A DNA stretch of 24,000 bases from an uncultured Thermodesulfobacteriota bacterium (GTDB taxonomy: Bacteria; Desulfobacterota; B13-G15). Positions 2,332 to 24,000 of the stretch are shown in pieces. Position 1 is the first letter of the stretch. Every line of letters starts with the position of its first letter. A program made the translations under genes and the position numbers. The notes below the pieces were generated by a model. It was not told where the DNA came from, searched no databases, and saw only the letters and a program-made list of their open reading frames with translations. The DNA is taken from positions 7,925-31,924 of the forward strand of contig CAYVAU010000012.1 in the NCBI GenBank assembly GCA_964448445.1, read 5' to 3'.

Positions 2332-2371
2332 TTCTTCCCCCAGAAGGCCTTAAAGCTATATCAGATTTGCC

Positions 2372-8117: not shown

Positions 8118-8333
8118 CCACTCAAGGGGGAGTTCCTCCTTCAATCCCTCCAAGAACGCCACAAACTCCCCTTCAAGCTCGACTGGCACATAGAGTTCCA
8201 TTTCCCCGCGGGAGGCATCCACGGTCCTTGAAGAGGCCAATCCCTCATAGGATTCGAGCAAGAAGTTGAAAAACGCCATTTCCTCCTTCGGTACTTTCAC
8301 CCGATAGATCAAGGTATCCCTTTCATAATCCAT
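8076..8333 (-). CDS. Small DUF4911-like protein (85 aa)
   Basis: The internal ATG at 8333 gives MDYERDTLIYRVKVPKEEMAFFNFLLESYEGLA.... This resembles DUF4911 family members as I recall them. The longer 151-aa reading would run antisense through the GGDEF gene's N-terminus. Confidence 0.5.
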   Translation of the reverse strand: MDYERDTLIYRVKVPKEEMAFFNFLLESYEGLASSRTVDASRGEMELYVPVELEGEFVAFLEGLKEELPLEWSKLDLPESPQGLP

Positions 8334-8347
8334 GGGAAAAATGATAC

Positions 8348-8367
8348 AAAATTTGCGTTCAAATTTT
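8348..8367. promoter_or_regulatory. Perfect 8-bp inverted repeat AAAATTTG-cgtt-CAAATTTT in the AT-rich divergent intergenic region. It is a candidate operator.
   Basis: Read directly: 8348-8355 AAAATTTG and 8360-8367 CAAATTTT. It lies between the DUF4911 start (8333) and the preferred GGDEF-gene start (8383). Confidence 0.25.
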
Positions 8368-8382
8368 AAAAGGAATTTCTCG

Positions 8383-9891
8383 ATGGAGAAATTAAAGAAT
8401 TTGCTGAAGGTCCTTGTCCTTCCTTTCCTTCGCTCCATGGGGAGGGTGGAGCTCCTTAGGGCCATAATCGATTCGATCCCCGATGGGGTTATAGCGGTGG
8501 ATAGAGAAGGGAGGGTGATCCTCTGGAACAAGGCGGTCAGTCAAATGACCGGGGTGGAGGAGAAGGAGATCTTGGGGAAGGGCGATTATGCTTATGCCGT
8601 TCCCTTTTATGGTGAAAAGAGGCCCCTCCTTGTGGACCTCATCTTGAGGGGCGAGGGGGAGTGGAGGAGGCGGTACGAGGGGTTTAAGCGGAGGGGAGAT
8701 ACCATAACCGCCGAGGGTTTTGCCCCTGCAGCCTACGGAGGGAGGGGGCTTTTCTTCTGGACCCTGGCTGCCCCCATAAGGGATGAGGAGGGGAGGATCA
8801 TAGGGGCGGTTCAGTGCATAAGGGACATAGCCGAAAGGAAGAGGATGGAGGAGGAGCTCCGCTGGAGGAGCTTCCATGATCCCTTAACCGGTGTTTACAA
8901 TCGTACCTATTTCGAAGAGGAGCTGAGGAGGCTTAAGGTCAGCCGCTCCTATCCGGTGAGCCTGATCCTCTGCGATGTGGACAACCTCAAGATGATCAAC
9001 GATTTCCTCGGCCACGACCAGGGTGACGAGGTCTTGAAGCGCATCGCAAAGGCCATATCGGACTCGGTGAGGGCATCCGATGTGGTGGCCAGGGTGGGAG
9101 GGGACGAATTCGCGGTGCTTTTGCCCCGGACCGACAGCCGGACGGCCGAACAGGTGGCCGAGCGGATCCTTAAGGCCGTAGAGAGGGAAAGGGAAAGGTC
9201 CCCCGAGCTCCCTCTGGAGCTTTCGGTGGGTTATGCCACAGCCAACGATCCCTCCAGGACCCTGGAGGACCTCTACCGTGAGGCGGATGACATGATGTAC
9301 CGCAACAAGCTCGTGAGGGGATTGAGTCCCAGGAGCTCGGTGGTGCATGTGCTCAAGGCCGCCTTGAGGGAAAAGGACTTCGCCGCCGAGGGACATATAG
9401 AGAGGGTGAAGAGGTTCAGCCTGCTGCTGGGCGAAGCCCTCGATCTCTCCCGGCCGGAGCTCGAATTGCTGGAACTCCTGGCTGAGGTCCACGACATAGG
9501 CAAGATCGGGGTCCCAGATGAGGTCCTCTTCAAACCCGGAAGGCTCACCCCGGAGGAGTGGGAGGAGGTGAGGAAGCACCCTGAGATCGGGTACCGTATT
9601 GCCCTTTCCTCTCCCGAGCTAGCGCCTGTGGCCGAGTTGATCCTGCAACATCACGAGCGCTGGGATGGAAAGGGATATCCGCAGGGTCTTAAGGGAGAGG
9701 GGATAAACCTTTTGAGCCGCATAGTCGCCATAGCCGATGCCTTTGACGCCATGACCTCGGACAGGCCCTACCGTCGGGCCCTCTCCTGGCAGGAGGCCCT
9801 CGAGGAACTGAAGAAGGGTGCGGGGACCCAGTTCGATCCCAAGCTTGTCGAGGTCTTCCTCTGGCTTATCGGGGGGAAGGGGGATGCGTAG
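8383..9891 (+). CDS. PAS sensor with GGDEF diguanylate cyclase and HD-GYP phosphodiesterase domains (c-di-GMP turnover)
   Basis: PAS segment: LLRAIIDSIPDGVIAVDREGRVILWN. GGDEF domain with I-site: RASD-VVAR-VGGDEF at 9070-9111. HD-GYP: HDIGKIG ... HHERWDGKGYPQGL. The start is ambiguous. ATG 8383 follows AAAGGAA, while the ORF-track start 8332 would overlap the divergent start codon. Confidence 0.85.
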   Translation: MEKLKNLLKVLVLPFLRSMGRVELLRAIIDSIPDGVIAVDREGRVILWNKAVSQMTGVEEKEILGKGDYAYAVPFYGEKRPLLVDLILRGEGEWRRRYEGFKRRGDTITAEGFAPAAYGGRGLFFWTLAAPIRDEEGRIIGAVQCIRDIAERKRMEEELRWRSFHDPLTGVYNRTYFEEELRRLKVSRSYPVSLILCDVDNLKMINDFLGHDQGDEVLKRIAKAISDSVRASDVVARVGGDEFAVLLPRTDSRTAEQVAERILKAVERERERSPELPLELSVGYATANDPSRTLEDLYREADDMMYRNKLVRGLSPRSSVVHVLKAALREKDFAAEGHIERVKRFSLLLGEALDLSRPELELLELLAEVHDIGKIGVPDEVLFKPGRLTPEEWEEVRKHPEIGYRIALSSPELAPVAELILQHHERWDGKGYPQGLKGEGINLLSRIVAIADAFDAMTSDRPYRRALSWQEALEELKKGAGTQFDPKLVEVFLWLIGGKGDA

Positions 9892-10405: not shown

Positions 10406-11106
10406 AGGCAGTTTTCGCGGCCTTAAGTTTCATGACCATTTTGCCCGTCCCTCCAGGAGGGGCTTTTCACAAAGCCCCCGCTTTCTTTCCCCTGGTGGGG
10501 GCCATTCTTGGAACGATCCTCTGGGCGATATCCCTCCCCTTGGGTTTGCTCTGGGGGGAGGAATTTTCCGCCTTGGGGATGGTGCTGGGGCTCTCGATCC
10601 TCACCCGGGGGCTTCATCTGGATGGCCTTGCGGATTCAGTGGATGCCCTTTTAGGCCCGAGGGAAAAGGCCCTCGAGATAATGCGCGATCCCCATATCGG
10701 GACCTTTGGAACGCTGGCCATTGTGGGGGTGATCCTGGCGAAGTTCGTCCTACTGCTGAACCTCGGGAGGGACTGGCATGCCCTTTTGCTCTTTCCGACC
10801 CTCGGAAGGATGGCAGCTCTTTTGCCCATGTACAGCCTCCCCTATCTCAGGGGAGAGGGGAAGGTCAGCCCCTTTCTGCCCATGGGAAAGGGGACCCTCG
10901 GGGTGGGCCTTCTGTTTTCGCTTGCCCTGTCGTCTTTGCTCCTTTGGCCGGTAGGTGTTGTGGTTTTCGGTATTGTCCTTTTTTACGGCCTTGCTGTTTC
11001 CCTTTATTTGAAAAGGAGGCTCGGGGGGGTGACCGGTGATCTATTGGGCGCCACGGTTGAGACGGCCGAGGTGGTGTCCCTGATGACCCTGGGGGTATTG
11101 AGGTAG
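10402..11106 (+). CDS. cobS: Adenosylcobinamide-GDP ribazoletransferase (cobalamin synthase)
   Basis: Polytopic membrane protein. The N-terminus MKAVFAALSFMTILPVP and the segment HLDGLADSVDAL are typical of CobS. It has a 4-nt overlap with cobU. Confidence 0.85.
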   Translation: MKAVFAALSFMTILPVPPGGAFHKAPAFFPLVGAILGTILWAISLPLGLLWGEEFSALGMVLGLSILTRGLHLDGLADSVDALLGPREKALEIMRDPHIGTFGTLAIVGVILAKFVLLLNLGRDWHALLLFPTLGRMAALLPMYSLPYLRGEGKVSPFLPMGKGTLGVGLLFSLALSSLLLWPVGVVVFGIVLFYGLAVSLYLKRRLGGVTGDLLGATVETAEVVSLMTLGVLR

Positions 11107-12171: not shown

Positions 12172-13210
12172 GCCCCTTAATAGGGAAGCCATTCAGGAGG
12201 CCAAGAGGCGGACCGAGGATCTGCTCATGCCCCGCCTGGCCCTGGGCAGGCTTCATGAAATCTCCTGGCAGGTGGCCGGGATAACCGGGAAGATCCCCAA
12301 GGCCCTGCCTAAGAAGGTGGTCATGGTGGGTGCGGGAGATCACGGGGTGGCAGAGGAAGGGGTGAGCCTCTTTCCCCAAGAAGTGACTAGGCAGATGGTC
12401 CTTTCCTTTATCAGGGGCTGGGCAGCCATAAACGTGATCGCAAGATATGTAGGGGCAAGGGTCATCGTGGTGGACTTTGGCGTCAAGGGTCCTCCCGACC
12501 CCGAATGGATCAACGCCAGGGGGCGCTTTTATTCCATGAAGGTGAGGGAGGGAACCTCCAACATCGCCAGAGGTCCGGCCATGTCCCTGCGAGAGGCCGA
12601 AGAGGTCGTCCTTAAGGGAATCGAGGTCTTTGAGCGGGAGGCCGAAAAGGGGATCGACATCATAGCCACGGGCGACATGGGCATTGCGAATACCACCGCT
12701 TCAGCAGCAGTAATCTGCGCCATAACGGGCTTGGATCCCCACGAGGTAGTGGGGAGGGGCACAGGGCTCGATGACCGGGCCTTGGAGCACAAGATCTCGG
12801 TGGTTAAGCGGGCCCTGGAGGTCAACAGGCCCAACCCCCGCGATGCCCTCGATGTGCTGAGCAAGGTCGGTGGGCTCGAAATAGGGGGCATATGCGGGTG
12901 GATCATCGGAGGGGCAAGGGCAAGGGTCCCCGTCGTGGTCGATGGCTTCATCTCTACAGCTGGGGCCCTTTTAGCCGTAACCCTTGAGCCGAAGGTGAAG
13001 GATTACCTCTTTGCAGGCCATTGCTCCGCGGAGAAGGGCCACAGGAAGGTCCTTCAGTACCTGGGCCTTGAGCCCATTCTCGATCTGCAGATGAGGCTTG
13101 GCGAAGGAACCGGTGCGTGCCTGGCCCTGGAGATCGTGGAGGCGTCGGTGAAGATTCTGGCCGAAATGGCGACCTTCGAGGATGCTGGGGTGAGCAAGGC
13201 CCTAAAATAG
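12140..13210 (+). CDS. cobT: Nicotinate-nucleotide--dimethylbenzimidazole phosphoribosyltransferase
   Basis: Motifs LGRLHEIS, GDHGVAEEGVS, GDMGIANTTASAA and LRLGEGTGA. It has a 32-nt overlap with the preceding gene. Confidence 0.9.
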   Translation: MGLKEILSQIKPLNREAIQEAKRRTEDLLMPRLALGRLHEISWQVAGITGKIPKALPKKVVMVGAGDHGVAEEGVSLFPQEVTRQMVLSFIRGWAAINVIARYVGARVIVVDFGVKGPPDPEWINARGRFYSMKVREGTSNIARGPAMSLREAEEVVLKGIEVFEREAEKGIDIIATGDMGIANTTASAAVICAITGLDPHEVVGRGTGLDDRALEHKISVVKRALEVNRPNPRDALDVLSKVGGLEIGGICGWIIGGARARVPVVVDGFISTAGALLAVTLEPKVKDYLFAGHCSAEKGHRKVLQYLGLEPILDLQMRLGEGTGACLALEIVEASVKILAEMATFEDAGVSKALK

Positions 13211-14152
13211 CAGTGCCAACAGGGAGGCCAGGGCCAGAAATGAAAAGGATGTTCCATAACTCAACCTTATGGCCCGCAGGATGTCCTGAGGGGAAGGCTT
13301 CTCCCCGTCCCCTATGAAAGGGAGGTCGTGGACCACACCCCGATATTTCGTGGGTCCCCCGAGCCTGACTCCAAGGGCCCCGGCGAAGGCCGCTTCGGGA
13401 TAGCCTGAATTGGGGCTTGGGGTCTTATTGTGATCCCTGAGCACCACTGAAAGGGCCCCTTTAGGATCCATCCCCAAAAGGAGGGCAGAGAGGGGGACCA
13501 GAAATACGCAGAACCTTGCCGGGAGGAGATTGAAGAGGTCATCGGCCTTTGCCGAAAACCACCCAAAGGATCGATAGGGCCCGCACTTATACCCGAGCAT
13601 GGAATCGAGGGTGCTAATGGCTTTAAAGGCCATGGCCAGGGGTGCCCCTCCCAGCATGGCGTAGAACAAGGGCGTCAGAACTCCATCTACGGTGTTTTCG
13701 GCCACCGACTCAACGTCACCTCTGCACACCTCCCTTGGAGGGAGGTCATCGGTATCCCGGGATACAATCCTGGAGAGCCTTTCTCTGGCCTTCGGGAGGT
13801 CCCCTTCCTTTAAAGCGTCATAGACCCCCCTTGCCTCTCGATCCAAATCCCTCAGGGCCAGGGTGGTCCAGAGCAACACCACCTCCACTGCAGCCCCAAA
13901 CCCGGGAGAGATCCCCGCACACCCCCTGATCAATGCCCAGCTCCCGAAAAAGGAGAACCCAACAACTAGGATCCATAAGATGGCCCCTCCCATACGGCTT
14001 GGCATTGCAGGCAAAAGGAGGCTTTCAAGCCCCTTGGTAAGCCACCCCATAATCCTCACGGGATGGGGGAACCACCTCGGGTCGCCCAGGATCAGATCCA
14101 AGCCAAAGGCGAGGACCACAAGATGCCACTTCCCCAAGAACTCAATTCCCAA
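13202..14152 (-). CDS. cbiB: Adenosylcobinamide-phosphate synthase (CbiB/CobD membrane protein)
   Basis: Segments LDLILGDPRWFPHPVRIMG, SRDTDDL and NSGYPEAAFAGALGVRLGG. The ORF-track start at 14152 is TTG, so the exact start is uncertain. It is convergent with cobT, with a 9-nt overlap. Confidence 0.85.
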   Translation of the reverse strand: MGIEFLGKWHLVVLAFGLDLILGDPRWFPHPVRIMGWLTKGLESLLLPAMPSRMGGAILWILVVGFSFFGSWALIRGCAGISPGFGAAVEVVLLWTTLALRDLDREARGVYDALKEGDLPKARERLSRIVSRDTDDLPPREVCRGDVESVAENTVDGVLTPLFYAMLGGAPLAMAFKAISTLDSMLGYKCGPYRSFGWFSAKADDLFNLLPARFCVFLVPLSALLLGMDPKGALSVVLRDHNKTPSPNSGYPEAAFAGALGVRLGGPTKYRGVVHDLPFIGDGEKPSPQDILRAIRLSYGTSFSFLALASLLALLF

Positions 14153-14224: not shown

Positions 14225-14812
14225 ATGAAACTGGGTATAAAGTTAAGTAACAGGATACTGTCCCTTGCCTTGAAGGAGCTGGTGCTTTCGGCTTTGCCTT
14301 TCGGGTGGAAGGCCTATGAAGGTGATGGTGTGCCCGGGGATGTCGATGTGTTGGTTGTGGATTATCCTGTCCTTTCGTCGGGCAGGGTGTCGGCCTTCAG
14401 GGGGGCTAAGGTCTTGGTCCTTGATACAGGTCTCAGCATGGCGGAAAAAAGAGGCTGTTTTCTCCTTCATGGTGTAAAGGGAGTGGTCCAGCGGGATGCC
14501 GCTTTACCCTTGTTCATTAAGGCCTTGGACAGGGTCAATAAGGGTGAACTGTGGATCGATCAGGAGACCCTAAAGGAGGTGGTCAAGGTTTCCAGGAACG
14601 GGCGCATGGTCCCCAAGGGGGTTACACCAAGGGAAAGGGATGTTCTCTTTTTGGTCTGTAAGGGTTACACCAATAAGGAGATCGCTTCGGAACTCGGCAT
14701 CAGCCTTTCGACGGTAAAGAGCATCCTGGGGAATCTCTATCGCAAGTTCAATGTGTCGGGGCGTTCGATGCTTCAGGCCACTGTGACCCGAGGGCAGCTC
14801 CTCACCCTCTAA
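14225..14812 (+). CDS. LuxR/FixJ-family transcription regulator with an atypical (CsgD-like) receiver-like N-terminal domain
   Basis: C-terminal HTH: TPRERDVLFLVCKGYTNKEIASELGISLSTVKSILGNLYRKF. The N-terminal ~120 aa have an alternating beta/alpha pattern with VDVLVVDYPV, but no acidic pair is evident in the first strand. Confidence 0.8.
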   Translation: MKLGIKLSNRILSLALKELVLSALPFGWKAYEGDGVPGDVDVLVVDYPVLSSGRVSAFRGAKVLVLDTGLSMAEKRGCFLLHGVKGVVQRDAALPLFIKALDRVNKGELWIDQETLKEVVKVSRNGRMVPKGVTPRERDVLFLVCKGYTNKEIASELGISLSTVKSILGNLYRKFNVSGRSMLQATVTRGQLLTL

Positions 14813-15330
14813 GGGGCCTTTAAGGTGAGGGATTGGAGGTTCCTGAAGACCCCGAGGGTCAATCCCCCCATTGGATAGAGGTAAAGTTTGAGACCCGACT
14901 TTCCGGTCCCGGAGATCGTCACCCTTTGGGCCGTATCCTCTGTGATTTCGACCTGGACTCTATTGGCCTTAAAGCCCTCTATCCAGCTCCGCTTCTCCCC
15001 CTCAAGATCGTTCTGGACCAGGTAAACGGCCATATGGTAGACGGTGCAGCGGTCATCCCCTACGGAGGTGATAAGCAGGGAGTGCTGCACCTTGTCCGGT
15101 GTTTGGAAATCGACGGCGAGGCTTCCGGTTGCCCTGTCAAAGGTGGCATACCAGGGGACCCCCTTTGGGACCCTCTGATCGAGGACCAAACGGCAGAGGG
15201 GGTTCATCCCGTTAACTATCTCCGGGGAGAAGCCCTTCTCAAGGAGGGATTCCTCGGGGCCACCCCTAGCATTCCCTGAGGTCAAAAGGGAGAGAATCAG
15301 GGCAAAGAGGATGAGCCTCGCCTTTCCCAT
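14809..15330 (-). CDS. Secreted protein of unknown function (173 aa), last gene of the repeat-protein operon
   Basis: ATG at 15330 overlaps the upstream TAA (TAATG coupling). The ORF-track GTG start is at 15342. The signal peptide is MGKARLILFALILSLLTSGNA. I recognise no family. Confidence 0.6.
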   Translation of the reverse strand: MGKARLILFALILSLLTSGNARGGPEESLLEKGFSPEIVNGMNPLCRLVLDQRVPKGVPWYATFDRATGSLAVDFQTPDKVQHSLLITSVGDDRCTVYHMAVYLVQNDLEGEKRSWIEGFKANRVQVEITEDTAQRVTISGTGKSGLKLYLYPMGGLTLGVFRNLQSLTLKAP

Positions 15331-15782
15331 TACAGTCCCCACGGCAGTGACCTTATGATCTCCTCCACGCCCAGCTGCGTGACCTGGATTATGCTGATGT
15401 TGATGATTAGGTCCGTATCGATGATATTGTTGGACCCTGGAACTTGCACAATCTGGAAGACCCCCCTCGCCCCATAAAATCCTCCTACAGAGGCCTCAAT
15501 CCTCACATTGGACGGAAGGGAGGGGGCAGAGGCGGGTTCTCCTTGGGTCTCGTAGAAGGAATTCCCCAGGGTGTCCCAGTATCCCTCAAAGACGACCGAA
15601 AAGCTCATCCCCATGTACGCACCCCTCATTTCGTCCAGCTCCCCCTCGTCGACGGCCTGAGCGACCACCTCTTCTCCCAGAAAGATCGCCTCTTCAAAGA
15701 TTCGGGGGGAGGAGGCGCGAACTGAGCCAGCCACAAGCATCACCGCCAGCAATGCTCCTATGATCAACAGACAGCCTTTCAT
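15330..15782 (-). CDS. Secreted 150-aa protein carrying one degenerate copy of the N/Q/G core repeat
   Basis: ATG at 15782 follows GGAGG (gaggaaggaggtaaaaATG). The signal peptide is MKGCLLIIGALLAVMLVAGSVRA. The segment GVFQIVQVPGSNNIIDT (15414-15464) aligns to GIVNVNQSVGNMNNQAN. The 189-aa ORF-track extension overlaps the C39 gene and was discarded. Confidence 0.65.
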   Translation of the reverse strand: MKGCLLIIGALLAVMLVAGSVRASSPRIFEEAIFLGEEVVAQAVDEGELDEMRGAYMGMSFSVVFEGYWDTLGNSFYETQGEPASAPSLPSNVRIEASVGGFYGARGVFQIVQVPGSNNIIDTDLIINISIIQVTQLGVEEIIRSLPWGL

Positions 15783-15798
15783 TTTTACCTCCTTCCTC

Positions 15799-16482
15799 TC
15801 AAAACTCACCTGGCGGTCTGAAGGAGCCCCAAGCCCCTGTCCAGTCCATAAGCCCCTTCCATTGGGCCTGCATGATCGGGGCCTTTGGGCGCGTTTCAAG
15901 GGGAAGGGGCGTTGTGGGGGCCTTCTTGTAGACGACGAAAATGACCCCGTTCCATCCCTTCAGGAACTCCTCCATCCTGAGACTCCTGTTCCCCACCGCT
16001 GGATCAGCCAGAAAGACCCTGTTGCTATCTGTACCCTTGAGGACGACAAAGTGCTTGTAACCCCGGGTGTTGAGCAATACGATCACGGGGATCTTGATCT
16101 TTGGGAGATCCTTGGCCTTAATTCTGTAACCGTTGGCCACAAATCCCTTGGAGGATGCGTATCGTTTGAGATCGAGAAGGGAGAATCCCTTCTTGCGGAT
16201 CTTTTCGCGATCCCCTATCTCAAGCATCTCCTTTACGATCTCCCGCTCGGATACCTCCTGGCCGTAGTAATACTTGATGATGGTAGCAAGGGAGGCGGCC
16301 CCACAGCTGAAATCGTAACGCTGGGGGACCACCTTCCTGAACCTGGCCTCCCGCAACGAAACTACTTCCTTCCTCAGATACCCGCCGAAGGGACCCCGAA
16401 CCTTGAGGGATGCCGGATATCCTCCAAAGGGAAGAAGTGCAAGGAAGAGGACTACCGCTGATATCCGGACTCCCCACATCAC
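15799..16482 (-). CDS. Stand-alone periplasmic C39-family cysteine peptidase (bacteriocin-processing peptidase fold), FapD-like in context
   Basis: The signal peptide is MMWGVRISAVVLFLALLPFGG. The catalytic Cys lies in YDFSCGAASLATII (codon 16303-16305). His is in YKHFVVL and Asp is in FLADP. The start is GTG 16482 or ATG 16479, and it overlaps the upstream TGA. Confidence 0.85.
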   Translation of the reverse strand: MMWGVRISAVVLFLALLPFGGYPASLKVRGPFGGYLRKEVVSLREARFRKVVPQRYDFSCGAASLATIIKYYYGQEVSEREIVKEMLEIGDREKIRKKGFSLLDLKRYASSKGFVANGYRIKAKDLPKIKIPVIVLLNTRGYKHFVVLKGTDSNRVFLADPAVGNRSLRMEEFLKGWNGVIFVVYKKAPTTPLPLETRPKAPIMQAQWKGLMDWTGAWGSFRPPGEF

Positions 16483-17093
16483 CTGACCTCCTGCCGCAGC
16501 GAAATCCCCAGCCGGTTGCAGATGGAGTTGTTGTTCCCCGAGGACTGACTGAGGATCCCCACCCCAGAAGCCCCGACGAAGGAATCGGCAATGATATCTT
16601 CCCTCATCCCTCCCCCTTCCGCTACCTGCCCTCGGAGCAGGCGGGGGCTCTCCCTCTCGAGCTCCCTTTCGCTGAGGAGGAGCACCCCTCCTATGGAGCA
16701 GAACATGAAGTTTGACTGATCGTTGAGGTTTCCCGATGATTGATTGACCATAAAGATCCCCTGGGATCCCGAAAAGGACCCGATGATGGAATCCCGGCTC
16801 TGGGAGTTCAGGATCGAGGCGGTGGAACGATCGCGTTGTTGCCGAAGGAAGGCCTCGAGTTCCACAGCCCCCCCTGTCAGGGAGAACAGCAGAAGATTTG
16901 CCTGGTTGTTGAGGGATCCGGAGGCCTGATTGAGGGTGTAAAGACCTTGGTTTTCCGTAAAGGAAAATTGAACCAATGTGCTGCTGGAGGTGTCCGAGGA
17001 GAGGATGAAAGAAGAAGTTTCGAGGCCACTGGAGAGGGCATCCGCTGCCACTGCCACCGATATCACCATTATGAGAATCGCCACCTTGAACAC
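16479..17093 (-). CDS. Secreted 204-aa repeat protein, the shorter and more degenerate paralogue of the two upstream repeat proteins
   Basis: GTG start at 17093, 6 nt after AAGGAGG. The signal peptide is MFKVAILIMVISVAVAA. The three cores are GLYTLNQASGSLNNQAN, GIFMVNQSSGNLNDQSN and GVGILSQSSGNNNSICN. Confidence 0.75.
   Translation of the reverse strand: MFKVAILIMVISVAVAADALSSGLETSSFILSSDTSSSTLVQFSFTENQGLYTLNQASGSLNNQANLLLFSLTGGAVELEAFLRQQRDRSTASILNSQSRDSIIGSFSGSQGIFMVNQSSGNLNDQSNFMFCSIGGVLLLSERELERESPRLLRGQVAEGGGMREDIIADSFVGASGVGILSQSSGNNNSICNRLGISLRQEVR
16515..16946 (-). repeat. Three spaced copies of the 17-codon N/Q/G core inside the 204-aa gene
   Basis: The cores lie at 16896-16946, 16710-16760 and 16515-16565. 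I verified the second by back-translation. Core starts are 62 and 65 codons apart. Confidence 0.8.
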
Positions 17094-17109
17094 CCTTTGC
17101 CTCCTTAGG

Positions 17110-17143
17110 AAAGGGCGGACAGGAGGGATCCTGTCCGCCCTTT
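17110..17143 (-). terminator. Intra-operon GC-rich hairpin between the 276-aa and 204-aa genes, acting as a partial terminator or an mRNA-stabilising 3' structure
   Basis: AAAGGGCGGACAGG (17110-17123) pairs perfectly with CCTGTCCGCCCTTT (17130-17143) around a 6-nt loop. On the minus strand it is followed only by TTTCC and then the SD of the next gene, so the U-tract is weak. Confidence 0.5.
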
Positions 17144-17152
17144 GTGGTTAAC

Positions 17153-17983
17153 TTACCTGGCCCCCATTTCTATGACACTGGGGACGCTCGCCGAGATGCT
17201 GATGATATTGGACTGGTTGTTCATGTTGCCTGAGGACTGGTTGACGTTGACGACGCCGACATTCCCGTTGATAGAGTTGGCGATCGAGTCAAGCCTGACG
17301 GTGCCCCACTCGTAGACCGTATTGCCGGTGCTGCTCTGCCCGAGATCCGCCTCAGATAGCGCCACCAGGGCCTCGCTGGCAACGGCCAGAACTATCTGAT
17401 TTGCCTGGTTGTTCATGTTGCCAACTGACTGATTTACGTTCACAATACCCATGTTATCCAGGATGGAGCCCGAGATCAGGGATTTCTTCTGTGGACCAGC
17501 AGTGTAGTCTTCCACAGCGTCCACGGAATTTCCTCCGTTTACCTGCTGCATCGATGCTTGGGAGTTGGCAAAACCGAGTACCCCTTCACCCTCGGACCAA
17601 GAGATGGCCGCGCTGATGAGGTTTGCCTGGTTGATGGAGTTGCCCACTTCCTGGTTTAGGTTGACGATGCCGGTGTTGGTGTTGACCGAGTCGCTGAGCG
17701 TGGCGGTCCTGTAGATCATGTCATACTGAGGTTTAAATTCATTAGAATACCTCGATACCGTATTTTCGGTTGCGGACTGATTGAGGAGGCTGCTGGCCTC
17801 AGCTCCTTGGTTGCCTTCAACGGCTATATCGACCTTGACCCTGACCCCTTTGTTGATCCTGACCTTCTCGTTGACCGTGACGCTCTTTGTCTTTTCCACC
17901 GTCCCGGTGACATCCAAATCGGCGAGGGCATAGCCCACCGCCCCGAGGAGAAATATTGCTGTAAGTGCCAAAATCTTTTTCAT
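17153..17983 (-). CDS. Secreted 276-aa Asn/Gln/Gly-rich three-repeat protein. It is the candidate major fibre/amyloid subunit (FapC/CsgA analogue).
   Basis: ATG at 17983 lies 8 nt after GGAGG. The signal peptide is MKKILALTAIFLLGAVGYALA. The three cores are GIVNLNQEVGNSINQAN, GIVNVNQSVGNMNNQAN and GVVNVNQSSGNMNNQSN. It contains no Cys. Confidence 0.85.
   Translation of the reverse strand: MKKILALTAIFLLGAVGYALADLDVTGTVEKTKSVTVNEKVRINKGVRVKVDIAVEGNQGAEASSLLNQSATENTVSRYSNEFKPQYDMIYRTATLSDSVNTNTGIVNLNQEVGNSINQANLISAAISWSEGEGVLGFANSQASMQQVNGGNSVDAVEDYTAGPQKKSLISGSILDNMGIVNVNQSVGNMNNQANQIVLAVASEALVALSEADLGQSSTGNTVYEWGTVRLDSIANSINGNVGVVNVNQSSGNMNNQSNIISISASVPSVIEMGAR
17207..17671 (-). repeat. Three spaced copies of the 17-codon core G-[IV]-V-N-[VL]-N-Q-x-x-G-N-x-x-N-Q-x-N in the 276-aa gene
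   Basis: The cores lie at 17621-17671, 17399-17449 and 17207-17257. I verified the first by back-translation. Each is preceded by a [ST]-x-[SG]-x-S-[IV]-x-x-N-x segment. Confidence 0.85.
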
Positions 17984-18006
17984 CTTTTACACCTCCTTTT
18001 AGGTTT

Positions 18007-18819
18007 TTACATGCCGTAAACCGAGCCAGAGATGTTGACGGCGTTGAGCTGGTTGCCCAACACCCCCGCGCTCTGGTTTACCTCGACCACACCCACATTC
18101 TCGTTTATGGATCCGGAGATGGTGGCGGTCTTGGTGGTGTCATATTCCATGAAGCTGTTTCCGGCTACGGCCTGACCGAGATCGGCCTCAGCAAGGGCCA
18201 CAAGGCCGCTGAAGCTGACACCCAAGGTCAACCCATTGCCCTGATTGGAGATGTTTCCGACCGACTGATTGACCATCACAATCCCTGTGTTCGTGTTGAT
18301 GGAACCCGTAATTACGGCATCCCTGTAAAGGATCTGGATGCTATCTATGGTGTTTCCCTCCATCAGCTGGCCCACCGATGTCTGGGCATGGGCAAAGCCA
18401 TAGCCCTCAGCGGGGGGCTCGCCATTGCCATTCGGGGTCCCGCCATTTATGGGTCCATCAACGGCCGCAGAGAGCATGTTCGACTGATTGGCCATGTTCC
18501 CCGTGGCCTGGTTCAGATTGACGATCCCTGCATTATTCAGTATCGAACCAACAACCTCACTCGTCTTTTCAGCACAGTTCTCGCAGGCGAAGTTTCCCCT
18601 CTGGCTCTGATTAAGGACCGCATGGGCCTCGGCAGCCTTCTCTCCTACCACATCCAGGGTCACATCGACAGAAAGGTTCTTCTTTATATTGATGACTTCC
18701 TCGACATTGACCGTCTTCTCCTTTGTCACCGTGCCACTGGCCTCCACATCTGCCAGAGCGGAAATCGCCCCGACAAATAGGAAACACGACGCAATTGCCA
18801 CTACTTTCAATCCATTCAT
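18007..18819 (-). CDS. Secreted 270-aa three-repeat protein, full-length paralogue of the 276-aa protein. It is a candidate second subunit or nucleator (FapB/CsgB analogue).
   Basis: ATG at 18819 lies 5 nt after GGAGG. The signal peptide is MNGLKVVAIASCFLFVGAISALA. The cores are GIVNLNQATGNMANQSN, GIVMVNQSVGNISNQGN and GVVEVNQSAGVLGNQLN. The shared blocks LVAL[SA]EADLGQ and GTV.K.K.V.V show the two proteins are collinear. Confidence 0.85.
   Translation of the reverse strand: MNGLKVVAIASCFLFVGAISALADVEASGTVTKEKTVNVEEVINIKKNLSVDVTLDVVGEKAAEAHAVLNQSQRGNFACENCAEKTSEVVGSILNNAGIVNLNQATGNMANQSNMLSAAVDGPINGGTPNGNGEPPAEGYGFAHAQTSVGQLMEGNTIDSIQILYRDAVITGSINTNTGIVMVNQSVGNISNQGNGLTLGVSFSGLVALAEADLGQAVAGNSFMEYDTTKTATISGSINENVGVVEVNQSAGVLGNQLNAVNISGSVYGM
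18043..18528 (-). repeat. Three spaced copies of the 17-codon core in the 270-aa gene
   Basis: The cores lie at 18478-18528, 18235-18285 and 18043-18093. I verified the first by back-translation. Confidence 0.85.
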
Positions 18820-18908
18820 CCTAACCTCCTTTCAAAAGGTTTTTGATTAAATCGCCGAATCCCATAATTCATCCAAAGGCCTTTACATCACCTCCTTTCT
18901 TTTTGTTT

Positions 18909-19205
18909 TTACCACCCCACTATCTTCAAAACATTTACCTGAACGTTGCCGCATCCAGAAGATATGTTGTCAATTTCCATGCTCCTTTTGATCTCATCCC
19001 ACAGAACGATTTTACTGCTCTCTGACATAATGAGGGTGATATTGCCTTCGCCTTGTCCCCATATCTGTGACAATTCATCAGAAGTGAGCGGATAATTGAC
19101 AACTTCAAAAGGAATCCCTCCATCAGAAAGAGCCTTCGATGTACCACAAAATAGACACAAACAAAAGCATACAATAACACAAACAATCCAGTACCTGTGA
19201 TGCAT
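18909..19205 (-). CDS. Putative small secreted protein (98 aa), first ORF of the operon
   Basis: ATG at 19205 lies 14 nt downstream of the sigma54 -12 element and has no SD. The hydrophobic N-terminus MHHRYWIVCVIVCFCLCLFCGTSKA is unusually Cys-rich. The ORF is AT-rich relative to its neighbours, so coding status is uncertain. Confidence 0.4.
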   Translation of the reverse strand: MHHRYWIVCVIVCFCLCLFCGTSKALSDGGIPFEVVNYPLTSDELSQIWGQGEGNITLIMSESSKIVLWDEIKRSMEIDNISSGCGNVQVNVLKIVGW

Positions 19206-19219
19206 GGTTTAAAATGATC

Positions 19220-19234
19220 GCAATTAGCATGCCA
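19220..19234 (-). promoter_or_regulatory. Sigma54 (RpoN) -24/-12 promoter for the repeat-protein operon
   Basis: The minus strand reads TGGCATGCTAATTGC, against the consensus TGGCAC-N5-TTGC. The GG and GC dinucleotides have exact spacing. The site is in an intergenic AT-rich region, and a sigma54 activator gene lies about 1.1 kb away. Confidence 0.65.
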
Positions 19235-19288
19235 TTGGGAAATTTTGCTGTGTTTTCATGAGGAGTGAAGGAACGGAAGAACAGAAAT

Positions 19289-19305
19289 TGTAAAGGATTT
19301 TTACA
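19289..19305. promoter_or_regulatory. Candidate enhancer (UAS) site 1: palindrome TGTAAAGGATTTTTACA (TGTAAA-N5-TTTACA)
   Basis: Read directly. Its centre is roughly 88 bp upstream of the predicted sigma54 transcription start. It is the inverted copy of site 2. Confidence 0.5.
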
Positions 19306-19358
19306 CCCTGAACTTGACAATGTGCTTTGAATCTGCAAATTTCACGAAAGGTAAAAGA

Positions 19359-19375
19359 CGTAAAAATCCTTTACA
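19359..19375. promoter_or_regulatory. Candidate enhancer (UAS) site 2: CGTAAAAATCCTTTACA, reverse complement of site 1 at 16 of 17 positions
   Basis: Read directly. Its centre is roughly 158 bp upstream of the predicted sigma54 start. It abuts the SD (GGAGG, 19376-19380) of the divergent OM-barrel gene. Confidence 0.5.
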
Positions 19376-19386
19376 GGAGGTAAGAA

Positions 19387-20361
19387 ATGGTAAAGTTTAG
19401 GTTGGGAGTGATAGTTTTTGTGGTCTTGGTCTTTTCGGTGTTTGGCGGTCCTTTAATGGCCCAGGAGTCCGGGGAGAAGAAGCCGGCTGAGGCCCTTTTG
19501 GCCGAGCAAGGGGGGGTGCTTTTGCCCAAGGGCGCGTTGGTCCTTGAGCCCTCCATAAAGTACAGCCATTTTTCGAGGCATCGCATTGCCATCTCCGGTT
19601 TTTCGATCCTTGAGGCGATAGTCATAGGGCGGATAGAGGTGAGGGATGTGAAGAGGGATATCCTTCAGTTTTCCCTGACGGGCCGTTATGGCCTTACCAA
19701 TCGTTTGGAACTTGAGGCCGAGGTCCCTTATTTGTTCGTGCACTATCGGGATCTGAGGAGGGCCGAGGGTGATGGTGGGCCCTACAAGGTTAGCGACAAC
19801 GACATCGGGGATGTGGAAGGGGGCATCTATTATCACCTGATAAGGGAGAAGGGGTGGGTGCCCGATATAGTGGTGAACTTGAGGGTGAAGGCCCCTACTG
19901 GGAAGGACCCCTATGAGGTCGAACGCGAGGGCAATAGATTAAAGGAACTTCCCACCGGCAACGGCCACTGGGGCCTATCGGGGGGCTTTACCATGGTTAA
20001 GGCGAGTGACCCCGCAGTTTTCTTTGCGGGCCTTAACTACCAGTGGAACATAGAGCGCGATGTGGGCAAGGGTTATGGGAAGATCGATCCCGGCGACAGC
20101 ATCGAGTACAACCTCGGCATGGCCTATGCCCTAAGTGAGCGATTTTCCCTCTCCACGTCCTTTCAGCAGCGCATAACCTTTGAGACCGAACAAAACGGCC
20201 ACAAGGACCCGGAGACTTATATGAACGTGGCTTCTGTGAATTTTGGCCTGAATTACTCCCTCTCTAAAACGGCGGGTTTGAACATCAATGTGGGGATCGG
20301 GCTGACCGAAGATTCCCCGGATTTCGAGGTGACCCTCAGCGTGCCCCTCAGGGTGTTTTAG
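19387..20361 (+). CDS. Outer-membrane beta-barrel protein (transporter-like). It is the candidate export channel for the repeat proteins (FapF/CsgG analogue by context).
   Basis: ATG lies 6 nt after GGAGG. The signal peptide is MVKFRLGVIVFVVLVFSVFGGPLMA. Amphipathic strands alternate throughout, and the C-terminus is LSVPLRVF with a terminal Phe. The family call is from pattern only. Confidence 0.75.
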   Translation: MVKFRLGVIVFVVLVFSVFGGPLMAQESGEKKPAEALLAEQGGVLLPKGALVLEPSIKYSHFSRHRIAISGFSILEAIVIGRIEVRDVKRDILQFSLTGRYGLTNRLELEAEVPYLFVHYRDLRRAEGDGGPYKVSDNDIGDVEGGIYYHLIREKGWVPDIVVNLRVKAPTGKDPYEVEREGNRLKELPTGNGHWGLSGGFTMVKASDPAVFFAGLNYQWNIERDVGKGYGKIDPGDSIEYNLGMAYALSERFSLSTSFQQRITFETEQNGHKDPETYMNVASVNFGLNYSLSKTAGLNINVGIGLTEDSPDFEVTLSVPLRVF

Positions 20362-21815
20362 TCCTTACTCTGGATCCTGTAGCGCCTCATGAGGTTGTAA
20401 ACGGTGGGGCGGCTCACACCGAGGATTTTTGCCGTGCGGGTGATGTTGTAGTTGGAGGCCTTAAGGGCCTGAAGGAGGCTCTCCTTCTCGATCCTCTGCC
20501 TGATTTCCTTTATGCCGGAAGGCCTCTTCGGGGCCTCAGGGGCCTGGATGGACAGGTCCTCAGGTCGGATCACCTCCGATTCGGAGATGAGCAGGGCCTT
20601 GCGGATCTTGTTTATCATCTCCCTGACATTGCCCGGCCAGTGGTACTGCATTATGGCCTCAAGGGCCTCCTTGCTGAAGCGCTTCTTCGGACCGGGTTGA
20701 TCCTCCTGGAGCTTCTTCAAAAAGTAAGTGGCCAAAATGACCTTGTCCTTTCCCCTCTCCCTCAGAGGGGGGAGTTCAACGGTTACAACGCTCAAACGGT
20801 AATAGAGGTCCTCCCTGAAGCGGCCCTCCTCGACCTCTTCCTCCAGGTTCCTATTGGTTGCGGCGATGATCCTCGTATCGACTCTCCTGGTGGTCCTTGA
20901 TCCTATCCGCTCGATACTGCCATCCTCGAGAAACCTCAGCAATTTCGCCTGCAGGGCAAGGGGCAGTTCCCCGATCTCGTCCAGAAACAGCGTGCCACCG
21001 TGGGCCTGTTCCACTTTGCCCTTCCTTGCGGTGTAAGCCCCGGTGAAGGCCCCCCGTTCGTAGCCGAAAAGCTCGGCCTCTAGGAGGTTTTCCGGGATTG
21101 CGGCGCAGTTTATGACCACGAAGGGCTTGTCGCGCCTTGGGCTCCTTTCGTGGATGGCCCTTGCCGTCAATTCCTTCCCCGTACCGGTTTCGCCCAGGAT
21201 GAGCACGGGAACATCAGTAGGGGCCACTTTCCTTATCAGGGAGAAGACCTTGAGCATGGCCTCGCAGGTCCCCACGAACTCCTCGTCCTCCTTCTCGCCT
21301 TTGTGTTCAAGGGCCCTGTCCACATAGGGGAGCAGTTGCAGGCAGAAATCGCCGTTTAGGTCCTTGAAGCGCCTCTTTAAACGCTCCCAAAGGGTGTCCT
21401 GGATGTGCCTTTGGAGATAATCCTGCTGGTTGAAGCAGAGCAGAAGCTTACAGTTGGGACACCGCAGGAGCAGGACCGTTGGCAGGGAGGTATTGCAGTA
21501 GGGGCAGGATTCAAACCCCTTCTCGGGCAACCCATCCCTTATCATGGACCAGAGGCCTACCAGTTCGTTCACATCGCGAAAGACGAAGGACACCGCCCCC
21601 TCTCCCCCCTCCCTCCTCAGGAACCTGACCCTTAGCGATAGCCTCCTTCCCCTCTCGTCGGAGAAGTGGAGAAGGCCGAACTCCCCCGGGGGGAGGTTCC
21701 CCTTGAGCAGGGCCCCTCCGAGGCTTACGTTGCACACCGTCACCGCAAAGAAACCGTTTTCCCCCTCAAGCTGGCCAGGCCAAGAACCCCTGATCCTAAC
21801 GTCCAATCTCGCCAT
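20358..21815 (-). CDS. Sigma54-dependent transcriptional activator with an N-terminal PilZ domain and a Zn-ribbon (PilZ, CxxC-CxxC, AAA+, Fis-type HTH)
   Basis: PilZ motifs: RLDVR (21795-21809) and NVSLGG (21714-21731). Zn-ribbon: CPYCNTSLPTVLLLRCPNC. Walker A: GETGTGKE. Sigma54-contact loop: ERGAFTGA. C-terminal HTH: NITRTAKILGVSRPTVYNLMRR. Confidence 0.9.
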   Translation of the reverse strand: MARLDVRIRGSWPGQLEGENGFFAVTVCNVSLGGALLKGNLPPGEFGLLHFSDERGRRLSLRVRFLRREGGEGAVSFVFRDVNELVGLWSMIRDGLPEKGFESCPYCNTSLPTVLLLRCPNCKLLLCFNQQDYLQRHIQDTLWERLKRRFKDLNGDFCLQLLPYVDRALEHKGEKEDEEFVGTCEAMLKVFSLIRKVAPTDVPVLILGETGTGKELTARAIHERSPRRDKPFVVINCAAIPENLLEAELFGYERGAFTGAYTARKGKVEQAHGGTLFLDEIGELPLALQAKLLRFLEDGSIERIGSRTTRRVDTRIIAATNRNLEEEVEEGRFREDLYYRLSVVTVELPPLRERGKDKVILATYFLKKLQEDQPGPKKRFSKEALEAIMQYHWPGNVREMINKIRKALLISESEVIRPEDLSIQAPEAPKRPSGIKEIRQRIEKESLLQALKASNYNITRTAKILGVSRPTVYNLMRRYRIQSKD

Positions 21816-21934: not shown

Positions 21935-22603
21935 ATGAGGATCCTGCTGGTGGAAGACGAGAGGAAGCTTTCGAGGATCATCAAACAAGGATTGGAGGAA
22001 GAGGGCTATGGGGTGGAGGAGGCCTCCGATGGCGAGGAGGCCCTTTTCCTCCTCAAGGATCGCACCTATGACCTGGTGATTCTCGATTTGATGCTTCCGA
22101 AGGTGGATGGCCTGGAGGTTTTGAAGGAGTTCCGCCGCGAGAAGGGGGGCAGTACCCCCGTTTTGGTCCTCACCGCCAGGGATACTGTGGAAGATGTGGT
22201 GAGGGGTCTTGATGCTGGTGCGGACGATTACCTGACCAAGCCCTTCGCCTTTGAAGAACTGCTGGCCCGGATAAGGGCCCTCTTGAGGAGAAGGAAGGAG
22301 GAGCTGGAGCTGAGGGTGGAGGACTTGGTGCTGGATCTTAGGACCCGCAAGGCTTGGAGGGGGGAGAAGGAGGTGGAACTCACGGCGAAGGAATTCGCGG
22401 TCCTTGAGTACCTCATGAGGAGGAGTGGGGAGATCGTCACCCGTGAGGAGATAGGTTCTTATGTCTGGGGCAAGGATTACGATCCCAGCACGAACATCGT
22501 GGACGTCTACATCAACCACCTCAGGAAGAAGATCGACCAAGGGTTTCCCCGAAAGCTTATCCACACCATAAGGGGAATGGGCTACAGCCTGAGGCCCTCG
22601 TGA
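21935..22603 (+). CDS. OmpR/PhoB-family response regulator (CusR/CopR-like)
   Basis: I chose the internal ATG 21935 (MRILLVEDERKLSRII). The receiver Asp is in LVILDLMLP, followed by TARD and KPF. The C-terminal winged helix contains ELTAKEFAVLEYLM. Confidence 0.9.
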   Translation: MRILLVEDERKLSRIIKQGLEEEGYGVEEASDGEEALFLLKDRTYDLVILDLMLPKVDGLEVLKEFRREKGGSTPVLVLTARDTVEDVVRGLDAGADDYLTKPFAFEELLARIRALLRRRKEELELRVEDLVLDLRTRKAWRGEKEVELTAKEFAVLEYLMRRSGEIVTREEIGSYVWGKDYDPSTNIVDVYINHLRKKIDQGFPRKLIHTIRGMGYSLRPS

Positions 22604-24000
22604 TGTTCAGGACCCTCAGGGCGAAACTGACCCTTTGGTATATGGTTTTGCTCGGGGTAACCCTCTGCTTTTTCAGCGCCTTTCTTTACCTGACCATGGA
22701 AAAGGGGCTCAAGGAGAACCTCGACAACAAGCTGAGGACTGCGGCCCGGGTGCTGGCCGCTTCGGTGTCAAGGCCCCTGGGGCCGGGACCCTCCCTTGCC
22801 GATGTGGAGCGGATCATGAGGGAACACTTCGGCCTGAGGCCGATGGGGAGGTTCGTGCAGATCTTGGACGAGACCGGAAGAAGGGCCACCAATATAAGGG
22901 ATGTGGACATCCCGGTGAGCTTGAGGACCCTGGAGCTCGCCTCAAAGGGCCAGGAGGTCTTCGAGACCGTGAGGCTGAGGGACGGGGGATCGCTGCGCCT
23001 GGTAACCGTTCCCATCATGATCCAGGGAAGGATGCTGGGGATAGTGCAGGTGGGGAGTCCCCTGGACGAGATCCAGGAGGCCCTCGATCAGCTGCTTTTA
23101 GTGCTGGCCATTTCGGTCCCCCTGGTCCTGGTGGTTGCAAGCCTCGGTGGGCTATTTTTGGCCAATCAGGCCTTGAAGCCCGTTGATCGCATCACCCGCA
23201 CCGCCCAGCGCATCGGTTCAGGGGACCTTTCCCAGAGGATCCCCCTTGAAGGGCTTCCGAGGGATGAGATCGGGCGGCTTGCCGAGACCTTCAACGAGAT
23301 GATCGCCAAATTGGAACGCTCCTTTGAACAGATGAAGCGCTTCACCGCCGATGCCTCCCATGAACTTAAGACCCCTCTTTCGGTGCTCAGGGGAGAGGTG
23401 GAGGTGGGCTTAAAGAGGACGAGGAGCCCCGAGGAGTATCGCAGGATCCTCAAAAGCTGCCTGGAGGAGATCACCAGGATGTCCCGCATTGTGGAAGATC
23501 TGTTGATGCTGGCCAGGGCCGATTCGGGCAGTCTCATGCTGCGGAGGGAAAGGGTCAATCTGAGGGATGTAGCCGAGGAGGTCTGGAGGGGCTTTTACCG
23601 GGAGGCCCTGGGCAAGGGACTTCGATTTCACTTCGGCGGCAGGGCCGCGGAAGTGCTGGGGGACAGGGAGAGGTTGAGGCAGATGATCGCAAATCTGGTG
23701 GACAACGCCATCAAATACACACCTTCGGGAGGCCAGGTGGAACTCACCACCGGGAGTTCCGATGGTGTGGCAATGATCACGGTGAGGGACACGGGCGAGG
23801 GGATACCCCCTGAGGAACAGGAGAAGGTCTTTGAGCGCTTTTACCGGGTGGACAAGGCCCGATCGAGGGAAAAGGGAGGGACGGGGCTGGGTCTCTCCAT
23901 ATGCAAGTGGGTGGCAGAAGCCCACGGGGGGACCATAAGCCTTGAGAGCAACCCAGGGGAGGGATCCACCTTCACGGTAAGGCTGCCCCTTTTGAGATGA
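22603..24000 (+). CDS. Sensor histidine kinase (two TM segments, HAMP, HisKA, HATPase_c)
   Basis: ATG 22603 overlaps the regulator's TGA (TGATG). The ORF-track GTG start is at 22600. The H-box is FTADASHELKTPLS. The N-box is NLVDNAIKYT, and the G-boxes are DTGEGI and GGTGLGLSI. The stop is at 23998-24000. Confidence 0.9.
   Translation: MFRTLRAKLTLWYMVLLGVTLCFFSAFLYLTMEKGLKENLDNKLRTAARVLAASVSRPLGPGPSLADVERIMREHFGLRPMGRFVQILDETGRRATNIRDVDIPVSLRTLELASKGQEVFETVRLRDGGSLRLVTVPIMIQGRMLGIVQVGSPLDEIQEALDQLLLVLAISVPLVLVVASLGGLFLANQALKPVDRITRTAQRIGSGDLSQRIPLEGLPRDEIGRLAETFNEMIAKLERSFEQMKRFTADASHELKTPLSVLRGEVEVGLKRTRSPEEYRRILKSCLEEITRMSRIVEDLLMLARADSGSLMLRRERVNLRDVAEEVWRGFYREALGKGLRFHFGGRAAEVLGDRERLRQMIANLVDNAIKYTPSGGQVELTTGSSDGVAMITVRDTGEGIPPEEQEKVFERFYRVDKARSREKGGTGLGLSICKWVAEAHGGTISLESNPGEGSTFTVRLPLLR

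Follow-up and report, generated by a model that had tools for sequence, protein, structure and literature searches.

The EBP gene and the domain order of its product

We analysed a 24-kb stretch of DNA from an uncultured Thermodesulfobacteriota bacterium (contig CAYVAU010000012.1 of assembly GCA_964448445.1; hereafter "the window", meaning the whole stretch), which carries the gene of a predicted sigma-54-dependent enhancer-binding protein (EBP) beside a Fap-like functional-amyloid operon. The gene is a single 485-aa open reading frame (ORF) on the minus strand, running from an ATG at 21815 to a stop codon at 20358, and its product comprises, in this order, a PilZ domain, a Cys4 zinc ribbon, a helical linker, a sigma-54 AAA+ module and a Fis-type helix-turn-helix (HTH; Table 1). 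The identity of these domains, their fold, the conservation of the motifs, the promoter and enhancer elements and the linkage of the gene to matrix operons were all established by computation.

The AAA+ module matched Sigma54_activat (PF00158) at 2.4e-74 and AAA_lid_14 at 1.2e-18 in Pfam and carries Walker A (GETGTGKE, residues 208-215), GAFTGA (255-260) and Walker B (DE, 279-280); with the AAA+ structures of NtrC1, LuxO and FleQ it shares about 50% identity. The NCBIfam models of many named regulators were matched only through their generic EBP core, in every case under the model's cut-off. An earlier note, made from the letters of this DNA alone, had described a complete AAA+ sigma-54 module followed by a Fis-type HTH in a protein devoid of a receiver domain. 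These claims are borne out by the matches to PF00158 and HTH_8, by the absence of a Response_reg match in a Pfam scan of the full protein, and by an N-terminal fold that is a PilZ barrel. The third family expected, PilZ (PF07238), was recovered at the borderline of its threshold. The zinc ribbon is likewise present, with 11 residues between its cysteine pairs (CPYC-X11-CPNC) in place of the 12 that had been counted. Family members matched the zinc-ribbon models DZR, Zn_Ribbon_1 and Zn_ribbon_3, and the ribbon profile weakly resembles the ribbons of ribosomal L32/L37ae.

An AlphaFold2 (AF2) model of the full-length protein reached a predicted local distance difference test (pLDDT) score of 92.7. 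Its top match in the PDB was NtrC1 in the inactive state (1ny5), whose alignment exceeds those of entries that hold only the AAA+ domain by about 40 columns and therefore takes in the linker helix. At the level of the model, this gives a hint of NtrC1/DctD-style repression of the AAA+ domain by the N-terminal module.

Table 1. Features of the window and of the loci compared with it; positions refer to the window unless a locus is named.
Feature	Position or locus	Strand	Evidence
PilZ/Zn-ribbon/AAA+/HTH EBP gene	20358..21815	-	ORF and translation, Pfam, AF2
PilZ domain, aa 1-95	21531..21815	-	Pfam on isolated N-terminus, AF2, Foldseek
RxxxR motif, R3-L-D-V-R7	21795..21809	-	Read from sequence, just before strand 1
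[D/N]xSxxG motif, N29-V-S31-L-G-G34	21714..21731	-	Read from sequence
Cys4 zinc ribbon, aa 100-128 (C104-P-Y-C107 ... C119-P-N-C122)	21432..21518	-	Alignment, family Pfam matches
Two-helix linker, aa 133-171	21303..21419	-	AF2 helices 133-151 and 157-171
Sigma-54 AAA+ domain and lid, aa 181-425	20541..21275	-	Pfam Sigma54_activat, AAA_lid_14
Fis-type HTH, aa 434-480	20376..20516	-	Pfam HTH_8 7.6e-10
Sigma-54 (-24/-12) promoter TGGCATgctaaTTGCg ahead of the Fap-like operon	19219..19234	-	Strict pattern match
Proximal enhancer palindrome TGTAAAGGATTTTTACA, putative EBP binding site	19289..19305	.	Pattern match
Distal enhancer palindrome CGTAAAAATCCTTTACA, putative EBP binding site	19359..19375	.	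Pattern match
Fap-like functional-amyloid operon, presumed EBP target	14809..19205	-	NCBIfam
First gene of the Fap-like operon, 98 aa	18909-19205	-
FapC-like genes	18007-18819 and 17153-17983	-	NCBIfam FapC 1e-10 and 3.4e-19
FapB-like gene	16479-17093	-	NCBIfam FapB 1.5e-11
FapD C39 peptidase	15799-16482	-	NCBIfam FapD 1.6e-57
FapF-like outer-membrane amyloid transporter	19387..20361	+	NCBIfam FapF 6.5e-57, Pfam Phenol_MetA_deg
PAS-GGDEF-HD-GYP protein	8332..9891	+	Pfam GGDEF 1.8e-43, HD_5 4.9e-39
Fap-like operon beside EBP	Window, L004, L005, L090
Reduced fapA-like and fapF-like pair beside EBP	L001
Curli operon (two Curlin_rpt genes, CsgE, CsgF, CsgG) beside EBP	L002/L003
Flp/Tad pilus operon beside EBP	L006 (Geomonas agri)
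GAF-GGDEF cyclase and PilZ-bearing cellulose synthase (BcsA) beside EBP	L087 (Nitrospiraceae)
No obvious matrix genes beside EBP	L088, L089
Proteobacterial EBPs with PF20161 beside fapF/fapD	L012 8608-9933; L019 8746-10119; L035 2691-4034; L009 8482-9945

The N-terminus adopts a PilZ fold

By Pfam alone the PilZ assignment is marginal; PF07238 scored 20.5 bits when the full protein was scanned and 22.7 bits for aa 1-172 by themselves, against a gathering score of 22.5 bits, with the alignment in register (EBP residues 6-83 on profile positions 6-89). By structure the assignment is firm. AF2 modelled aa 1-172 with a pLDDT of 94.5 and a predicted template modelling (pTM) score of 0.86, as six beta-strands (7-18, 21-31, 34-39, 46-52, 58-69 and 72-78) followed by a helix (82-95). 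When this model was compared with the PDB by Foldseek, all of the top 39 matches were PilZ domains, the best being that of BcsA/CeSA (4i86; E 2.6e-6, target template modelling score 0.75). Complexes with cyclic di-GMP (c-di-GMP) were frequent among these matches (BcsA, MapZ, Alg44, VCA0042, MotI, PA0012, MrkH, PA4608, YcgR and PlzA). Moreover, 27 of 40 family N-termini matched PilZ independently in Pfam (E <= 0.01, best 1e-11), and about half of the full-length homologues already carry a precomputed PilZ match. Given the modelled fold, its Foldseek matches and the homologues that match PilZ on their own, we consider the assignment robust.

Sequence searches with the N-terminus returned far less. 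The word-indexed homology search gave no matches, whether run with the EBP N-terminus alone or with an N-terminal profile, and phmmer of aa 1-100 found none among PDB sequences; a search of the PDB with the N-terminal profile yielded one weak PilZ match (4q63, E 7.7e-4) together with weak ribosomal zinc ribbons. An exhaustive phmmer search of 1.84 billion representatives with the first 180 residues of the EBP recovered 23 proteins at E <= 0.001, and from this small number we take the N-terminal module to be family-specific and fast-evolving.

Both PilZ motifs are found exactly where the earlier note had read them, RLDVR at residues 3-7 and NVSLGG at residues 29-34, and the window EBP thus has the canonical form of each. 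The second motif starts 22 residues after R7, a gap inside the usual PilZ spacing, as had also been claimed. A hidden Markov model (HMM) of the family N-terminus aligns R3 and R7 with the RxxxR motif (RKDFR) of the PilZ domain of BcsA from a related locus, and places the second motif of the EBP on the second-motif position of that same domain.

A sigma-54 promoter and paired palindromes precede the Fap-like operon

The sequence TGGCATgctaaTTGC (19220-19234, minus strand) is the sole match to TGGCAY-N5-TTGC in the 24 kb, where 0.05 would be expected. A looser sigma-54 pattern, with up to two mismatches, was dropped as evidence; its 8 matches against 8.3 expected show no enrichment, and only the strict pattern is informative. 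The palindrome TGTAAA-N5-TTTACA, allowing up to two mismatches, has two matches in the window (0.17 expected), and both lie in the same intergenic region as the promoter (19206-19386). The distal palindrome is 70 bp from the proximal one; measured to their centres, the two lie upstream of the -24/-12 element by about 70 and 140 bp. The earlier note had pointed to this promoter and to palindromes at 19289-19375 ahead of an adjacent fibre operon. The pattern searches uphold both elements, and the operon, which does stand beside the EBP gene under a sigma-54 promoter, can now be specified as Fap-like.

This specification comes from NCBIfam, where all four Fap models (FapB, FapC, FapD and FapF) were matched. 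Since the matches fall far below the equivalog cut-offs, we call the system Fap-like and regard it as remote from the Pseudomonas type. The operon also carries a 189-aa and a 177-aa gene, and the identity between its two FapC-like proteins is 42%. The fapF-like gene is divergent from the rest of the operon and convergent with the EBP gene, with which its stop codon overlaps. A reading of the window's fibre proteins as curlins was rejected, the 270-aa protein having no similarity to the Curlin_rpt protein of locus L002 and the proteins being FapC- and FapB-like instead.

Two further observations concern the ends of the intergenic region. The distal palindrome stops 12 bp ahead of the fapF-like ATG (19387), abutting a GGAGG ribosome-binding site, and an EBP bound there might also alter fapF expression; in P. 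fluorescens, induction of fapA-E is not accompanied by that of fapF (PMC9207406). At the other end, only some 10-15 nt separate the -12 element from the start codon annotated for the first Fap-like gene (window 19205-19234), as they do in loci L001 (~4862-4892) and L005 (~10599-10626). This short gap in three loci suggests a leaderless mRNA or one with a very short leader, or else a mis-called start.

The putative enhancer code recurs beside different fibre operons

We compared ten family loci, counting the window and treating L002 and L003 as one arrangement (Table 1). Matrix or fibre genes adjoin the EBP gene in eight of the ten. PF27129 (FapBC) is present in the homologous operons of L004, L005 and L090, and FapF-like orthologues occur in these three loci and in L001. 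Consensus sigma-54 promoters (9-10 of 10 positions) stand ahead of the first fibre gene in L001, L002, L005 and L090, with weaker ones in L006 and L087. Furthermore, TGTAAA/TTTACA half-sites cluster just upstream of the sigma-54 promoters in L001, L002/L003, L005, L006, L087 and L090. In L090, three half-sites out of four in the locus fall within the 120 bp before the promoter, and in Geomonas the EBP gene is followed by four tandem TTTACA repeats.

A further comparison is with L002/L003 (4474-7663), where an EBP orthologue 59% identical to that of the window stands beside curli instead of fap genes, with a TGGCAT-N5-TTGC promoter. The exact 17-mer TGTAAAAATCCTTTACA is common to the window and to this locus, where it lies upstream of the curli operon; here the EBP seems, from its gene neighbourhood, to have been redeployed for another amyloid system.

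These loci bear on whether the EBP controls its neighbour at all. Its real targets could lie elsewhere, with adjacency, promoter and palindromes all coincidental, as might be argued from the chance-level count of the loose sigma-54 pattern and from the two loci, L088 and L089, in which the EBP has no matrix neighbours. Against this stand the uniqueness of the strict promoter match in the window, the confinement of the palindromes to this one intergenic region, the identical 17-mer beside a diverged orthologue with another fibre operon, and the recurrence of half-site clusters with sigma-54 promoters in six other loci. Because promoter and enhancer are conserved across loci, we regard mere coincidence as highly improbable. 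The comparison provides good evidence, at the sequence level, that family EBPs regulate adjacent operons via a conserved enhancer code, and the window EBP very probably switches on the adjacent Fap-like operon.

Conservation of the N-terminal module and c-di-GMP as the likely signal

A full-length search returned over 100 proteins, about 480-500 aa long, at 99-100% query coverage and 44-70% identity, from sources that include Thermosulfurimonas, Thermodesulfobacterium, Syntrophales, Geomonas, Geoalkalibacter and Nitrospiraceae; the first two are the nearest named relatives. Residue conservation was scored in an alignment of 111 full-length homologues. Seven N-terminal residues are invariant in 111 of 111 (R3, R7, W89, C104, C107, C119 and C122), G34 is kept in 106, and P105, Y106, L126 and Y133 are kept in more than 90%. 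Were R3 and R7 without a role in ligand binding, such invariance of surface arginines at a flexible N-terminus would be difficult to account for.

On sequence grounds, c-di-GMP is likely to be the signal that the EBP perceives. This view follows from the PilZ motifs and from the neighbours of the EBP genes, which are classic c-di-GMP outputs (amyloid, curli, Tad pili and cellulose), as well as from L087, where a GGDEF gene and a PilZ-bearing BcsA accompany the EBP. It also follows from the PAS-GGDEF-HD-GYP protein encoded in the window about 10 kb from the EBP gene, whose motifs are intact (GGDEF at aa 256, HD at 387 and GYP at 448) and which is possibly a bifunctional enzyme that both makes and degrades c-di-GMP.

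Taken with the promoter architecture, these data lead us to propose a sigma-54 EBP that is gated by c-di-GMP through its PilZ domain and activates the adjacent Fap-like amyloid operon, a reading that draws on sequence, structural models and analogy and that we hold to be moderately probable. In this scheme, the C-terminal HTH would bind the two TGTAAA-N5-TTTACA palindromes. At low c-di-GMP, the module formed by PilZ domain, ribbon and linker would keep the AAA+ domain incompetent for assembly. Binding of c-di-GMP across R3xxxR7 and N29xS31xxG34 would re-order the N-terminus and free, or promote, assembly of the ring. ATP hydrolysis would then remodel the sigma-54 holoenzyme at 19219-19234 to an open complex from which the amyloid genes are transcribed, and high c-di-GMP would turn amyloid matrix production on. 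We infer the binding of the ligand, the direction of regulation and the allosteric route; the direction, with high c-di-GMP as the active state, is taken from the activator BrfA, described below, and from general c-di-GMP biology.

Several points weigh against this proposal. The Pfam score of the PilZ domain sits at its threshold, and the pTM of the full-length model (0.59) makes the inter-domain geometry uncertain. Only two residues precede R3, and the N-terminal arm before RxxxR is longer in well-studied PilZ proteins. The second motif drifts across the 111 homologues, position 29 being N in 37, E in 32 and D in 28, and position 31 being S in 81 and G in 30. The gene rpoN was not found in the 24-kb window, and obvious matrix genes were not seen beside the EBP in two of the ten family loci. 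Finally, motifs alone are no guarantee of binding, since PlpA of Myxococcus xanthus has both PilZ motifs and yet fails to bind c-di-GMP (PMC8316039).

The last of these points leads to a different account of the N-terminus, in which the barrel is a PilZ fold that has lost c-di-GMP binding or never had it and serves as a protein-interaction module or as a module for another ligand, the Cys4 ribbon is the real sensor (of redox state or metal) or a dimerisation device, and fap is still the target. Besides PlpA, it can appeal to MXAN_2902 of M. xanthus, whose PilZ domain is predicted to be non-binding (PMC8316039), to the borderline Pfam score, and to the degeneracy of the second motif in much of the family, whereas the Cys4 ribbon and W89 are invariant. 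It has to contend with the invariance of R3 and R7, with the intact state of both motifs in the window EBP, and with neighbours that are classic c-di-GMP outputs or, in L087, a GGDEF gene; in addition, the fap circuit of Pseudomonas is described in PMC13101488 as c-di-GMP-controlled. On balance we think a non-binding barrel rather unlikely, though it is the most serious competitor to gating by c-di-GMP.

Other regulators and genes in the window

Upstream of the EBP gene and divergent from it lie an OmpR-type response regulator (21935-22603, plus strand) and an sCache/HAMP histidine kinase (22600-24000, plus strand). The true start of the response regulator is probably near 21935, because the listed start at 21815 is an upstream TTG and the receiver begins at Met41. 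At the far end of the operon, a GerE/LuxR regulator of about 195 aa is encoded at 14225-14812 (plus strand), with counterparts in L001 (4988-5563), L002 (7647-8234) and L090 (8443-9033); it recalls CsgD of the curli system and could form a second regulatory tier.

These genes raise the question of where the decisive control resides. The EBP might be constitutive, or regulated at its AAA+ domain like FleQ, with the OmpR-type two-component system or the GerE/LuxR protein in command and the PilZ domain adding little. The pair of response regulator and kinase is indeed syntenic with the EBP in the window, L001, L002/L003 and L090, as is the GerE regulator, and FleQ, which binds c-di-GMP on its AAA+ domain, was among the structure matches (PDB 5exx). 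Yet the conservation of an N-terminal module some 175 aa long, invariant residues included, points to an input at the post-translational level, and L004, L005 and L006 keep the linkage of EBP and operon although they lack both the two-component system and the GerE gene. We judge this alternative improbable, and retain the EBP itself as the proposed c-di-GMP-responsive step.

The minus strand at 85-5767 holds housekeeping genes, namely those of a BamA-like Omp85 protein with five POTRA domains, a Lol/MacB-type ABC ATPase, an FtsX permease and an aminoacyl-tRNA synthetase of class II (Lys/Asp/Asn-type). The window also shares with L001 and L002 the synteny of its cobalamin genes (CobD and CobT-like DBI_PRT) at 12140-14152.

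Comparison with known systems

The closest precedent is the fap circuit of P. fluorescens PF07, in which fapA-E are transcribed from an RpoN-dependent -24/-12 promoter activated by the EBP BrfA, encoded in reverse orientation downstream of fapF (Guo et al. 2022, PMC9207406). BrfA is cited in PMC13101488 as sensing c-di-GMP (Guo et al. 2024, Microbiol Res 287:127864). Like BrfA, the window EBP is a sigma-54 activator encoded adjacent to and convergent with a fapF or fapF-like gene, a gene order also seen in L012; both act, the window EBP by prediction, at the -24/-12 promoter of a Fap or Fap-like operon, and share an absence of phospho-acceptor logic and a biofilm-matrix output. The AAA+/HTH region of the window protein is 46% identical to that of the EBP in L012, which we identify as a probable BrfA orthologue from its length (441 aa, equal to BrfA) and its context.

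The two differ in their sensors. Each of four proteobacterial EBPs beside fap genes, from Pseudomonas bharatica, Duganella, Polaromonas and an uncultured betaproteobacterium, has a VpsR domain (PF20161) at its N-terminus and is a probable BrfA orthologue; the four were met incidentally in a locus search by full-length alignment that otherwise returned generic EBPs matched on the AAA+ core. The window EBP instead has PilZ, ribbon and a helical hairpin, gave no PF20161 match in Pfam, and shows no detectable similarity to the L012 EBP across the N-terminus. They differ in lineage as well, the nearest named relatives of the window EBP being Thermosulfurimonas and Thermodesulfobacterium. The simplest reading is that of one fap circuit with two sensor domains, VpsR-type and PilZ, in different lineages.

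Fusion of a PilZ domain to a sigma-54 EBP has itself been noted in MXAN_2902 (PMC8316039), with which we compared the window EBP by description only. The likeness lies in the fusion; the difference is that the PilZ domain of MXAN_2902 is predicted not to bind c-di-GMP, whereas both motifs are intact in the window protein. MrkH of Klebsiella pneumoniae, the activator of type 3 fimbriae (PDB 5kgo and 5kec), offers the parallel of a PilZ c-di-GMP sensor in the activator of a surface-fibre operon, and it matched the N-terminal model structurally (Foldseek ranks 31-42). MrkH is a small sigma-70-type activator composed of PilZN and PilZ, without an AAA+ domain or sigma-54 dependence, whereas the PilZ domain of the window EBP would gate an ATP-driven sigma-54 activator.

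Among EBP-family proteins, FleQ, VpsR and FlrA also tie c-di-GMP to matrix and motility genes, and the AAA+ domain of FleQ is about as close to the window EBP as those of NtrC1 and LuxO. Unlike the arrangement proposed here, they bind c-di-GMP at AAA+ or at REC-like/VpsR-type regions and not through PilZ, and FleQ and VpsR work largely at sigma-70 promoters for matrix genes. NtrC1/DctD, which are under negative regulation, share with the window EBP a helical linker between sensor and AAA+ domain, and the match to inactive 1ny5 suggests that the N-terminal module of the window EBP likewise represses until its signal arrives; their sensor is a phosphorylatable receiver, where the window protein has PilZ and a zinc ribbon.

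What is already known thus comprises the component domains, the fap circuit under BrfA, the PilZ-EBP fusion in MXAN_2902, and database PilZ matches on many homologues. The earlier note had accordingly overrated the novelty of the finding, given that a c-di-GMP-sensing EBP for fap is published and a PilZ-EBP fusion had been noted before. In the literature that we searched, we found no characterised PilZ-gated EBP, and a review of PilZ-related domains does not mention PilZ-EBP fusions. If binding is confirmed, the window EBP would be the first characterised PilZ-gated AAA+ sigma-54 activator that we have found, adding PilZ to the modes by which EBPs such as FleQ, VpsR and BrfA read c-di-GMP.

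A broader proposal is that EBPs with PilZ, ribbon and linker form a distinct and widespread c-di-GMP-gated class in Thermodesulfobacteriota, Desulfobacterota and Nitrospirota, which shares the TGTAAA/TTTACA code and acts as a local master switch for Fap, curli, Tad or cellulose, with the sensor swapped and the ligand kept relative to BrfA. We put the chances of this about even. If true, it would show in nature how the input of a second messenger can be rewired by modules. The family would offer a compact and predictable regulon, which couples palindrome and -24/-12 promoter to genes for Fap, curli, Tad and cellulose in anaerobic and thermophilic lineages that have received little study, and would extend Fap-type amyloid systems and their sigma-54 control beyond Proteobacteria. 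Set beside BrfA, it would provide a clean natural experiment in the swapping of sensor domains on a single circuit.

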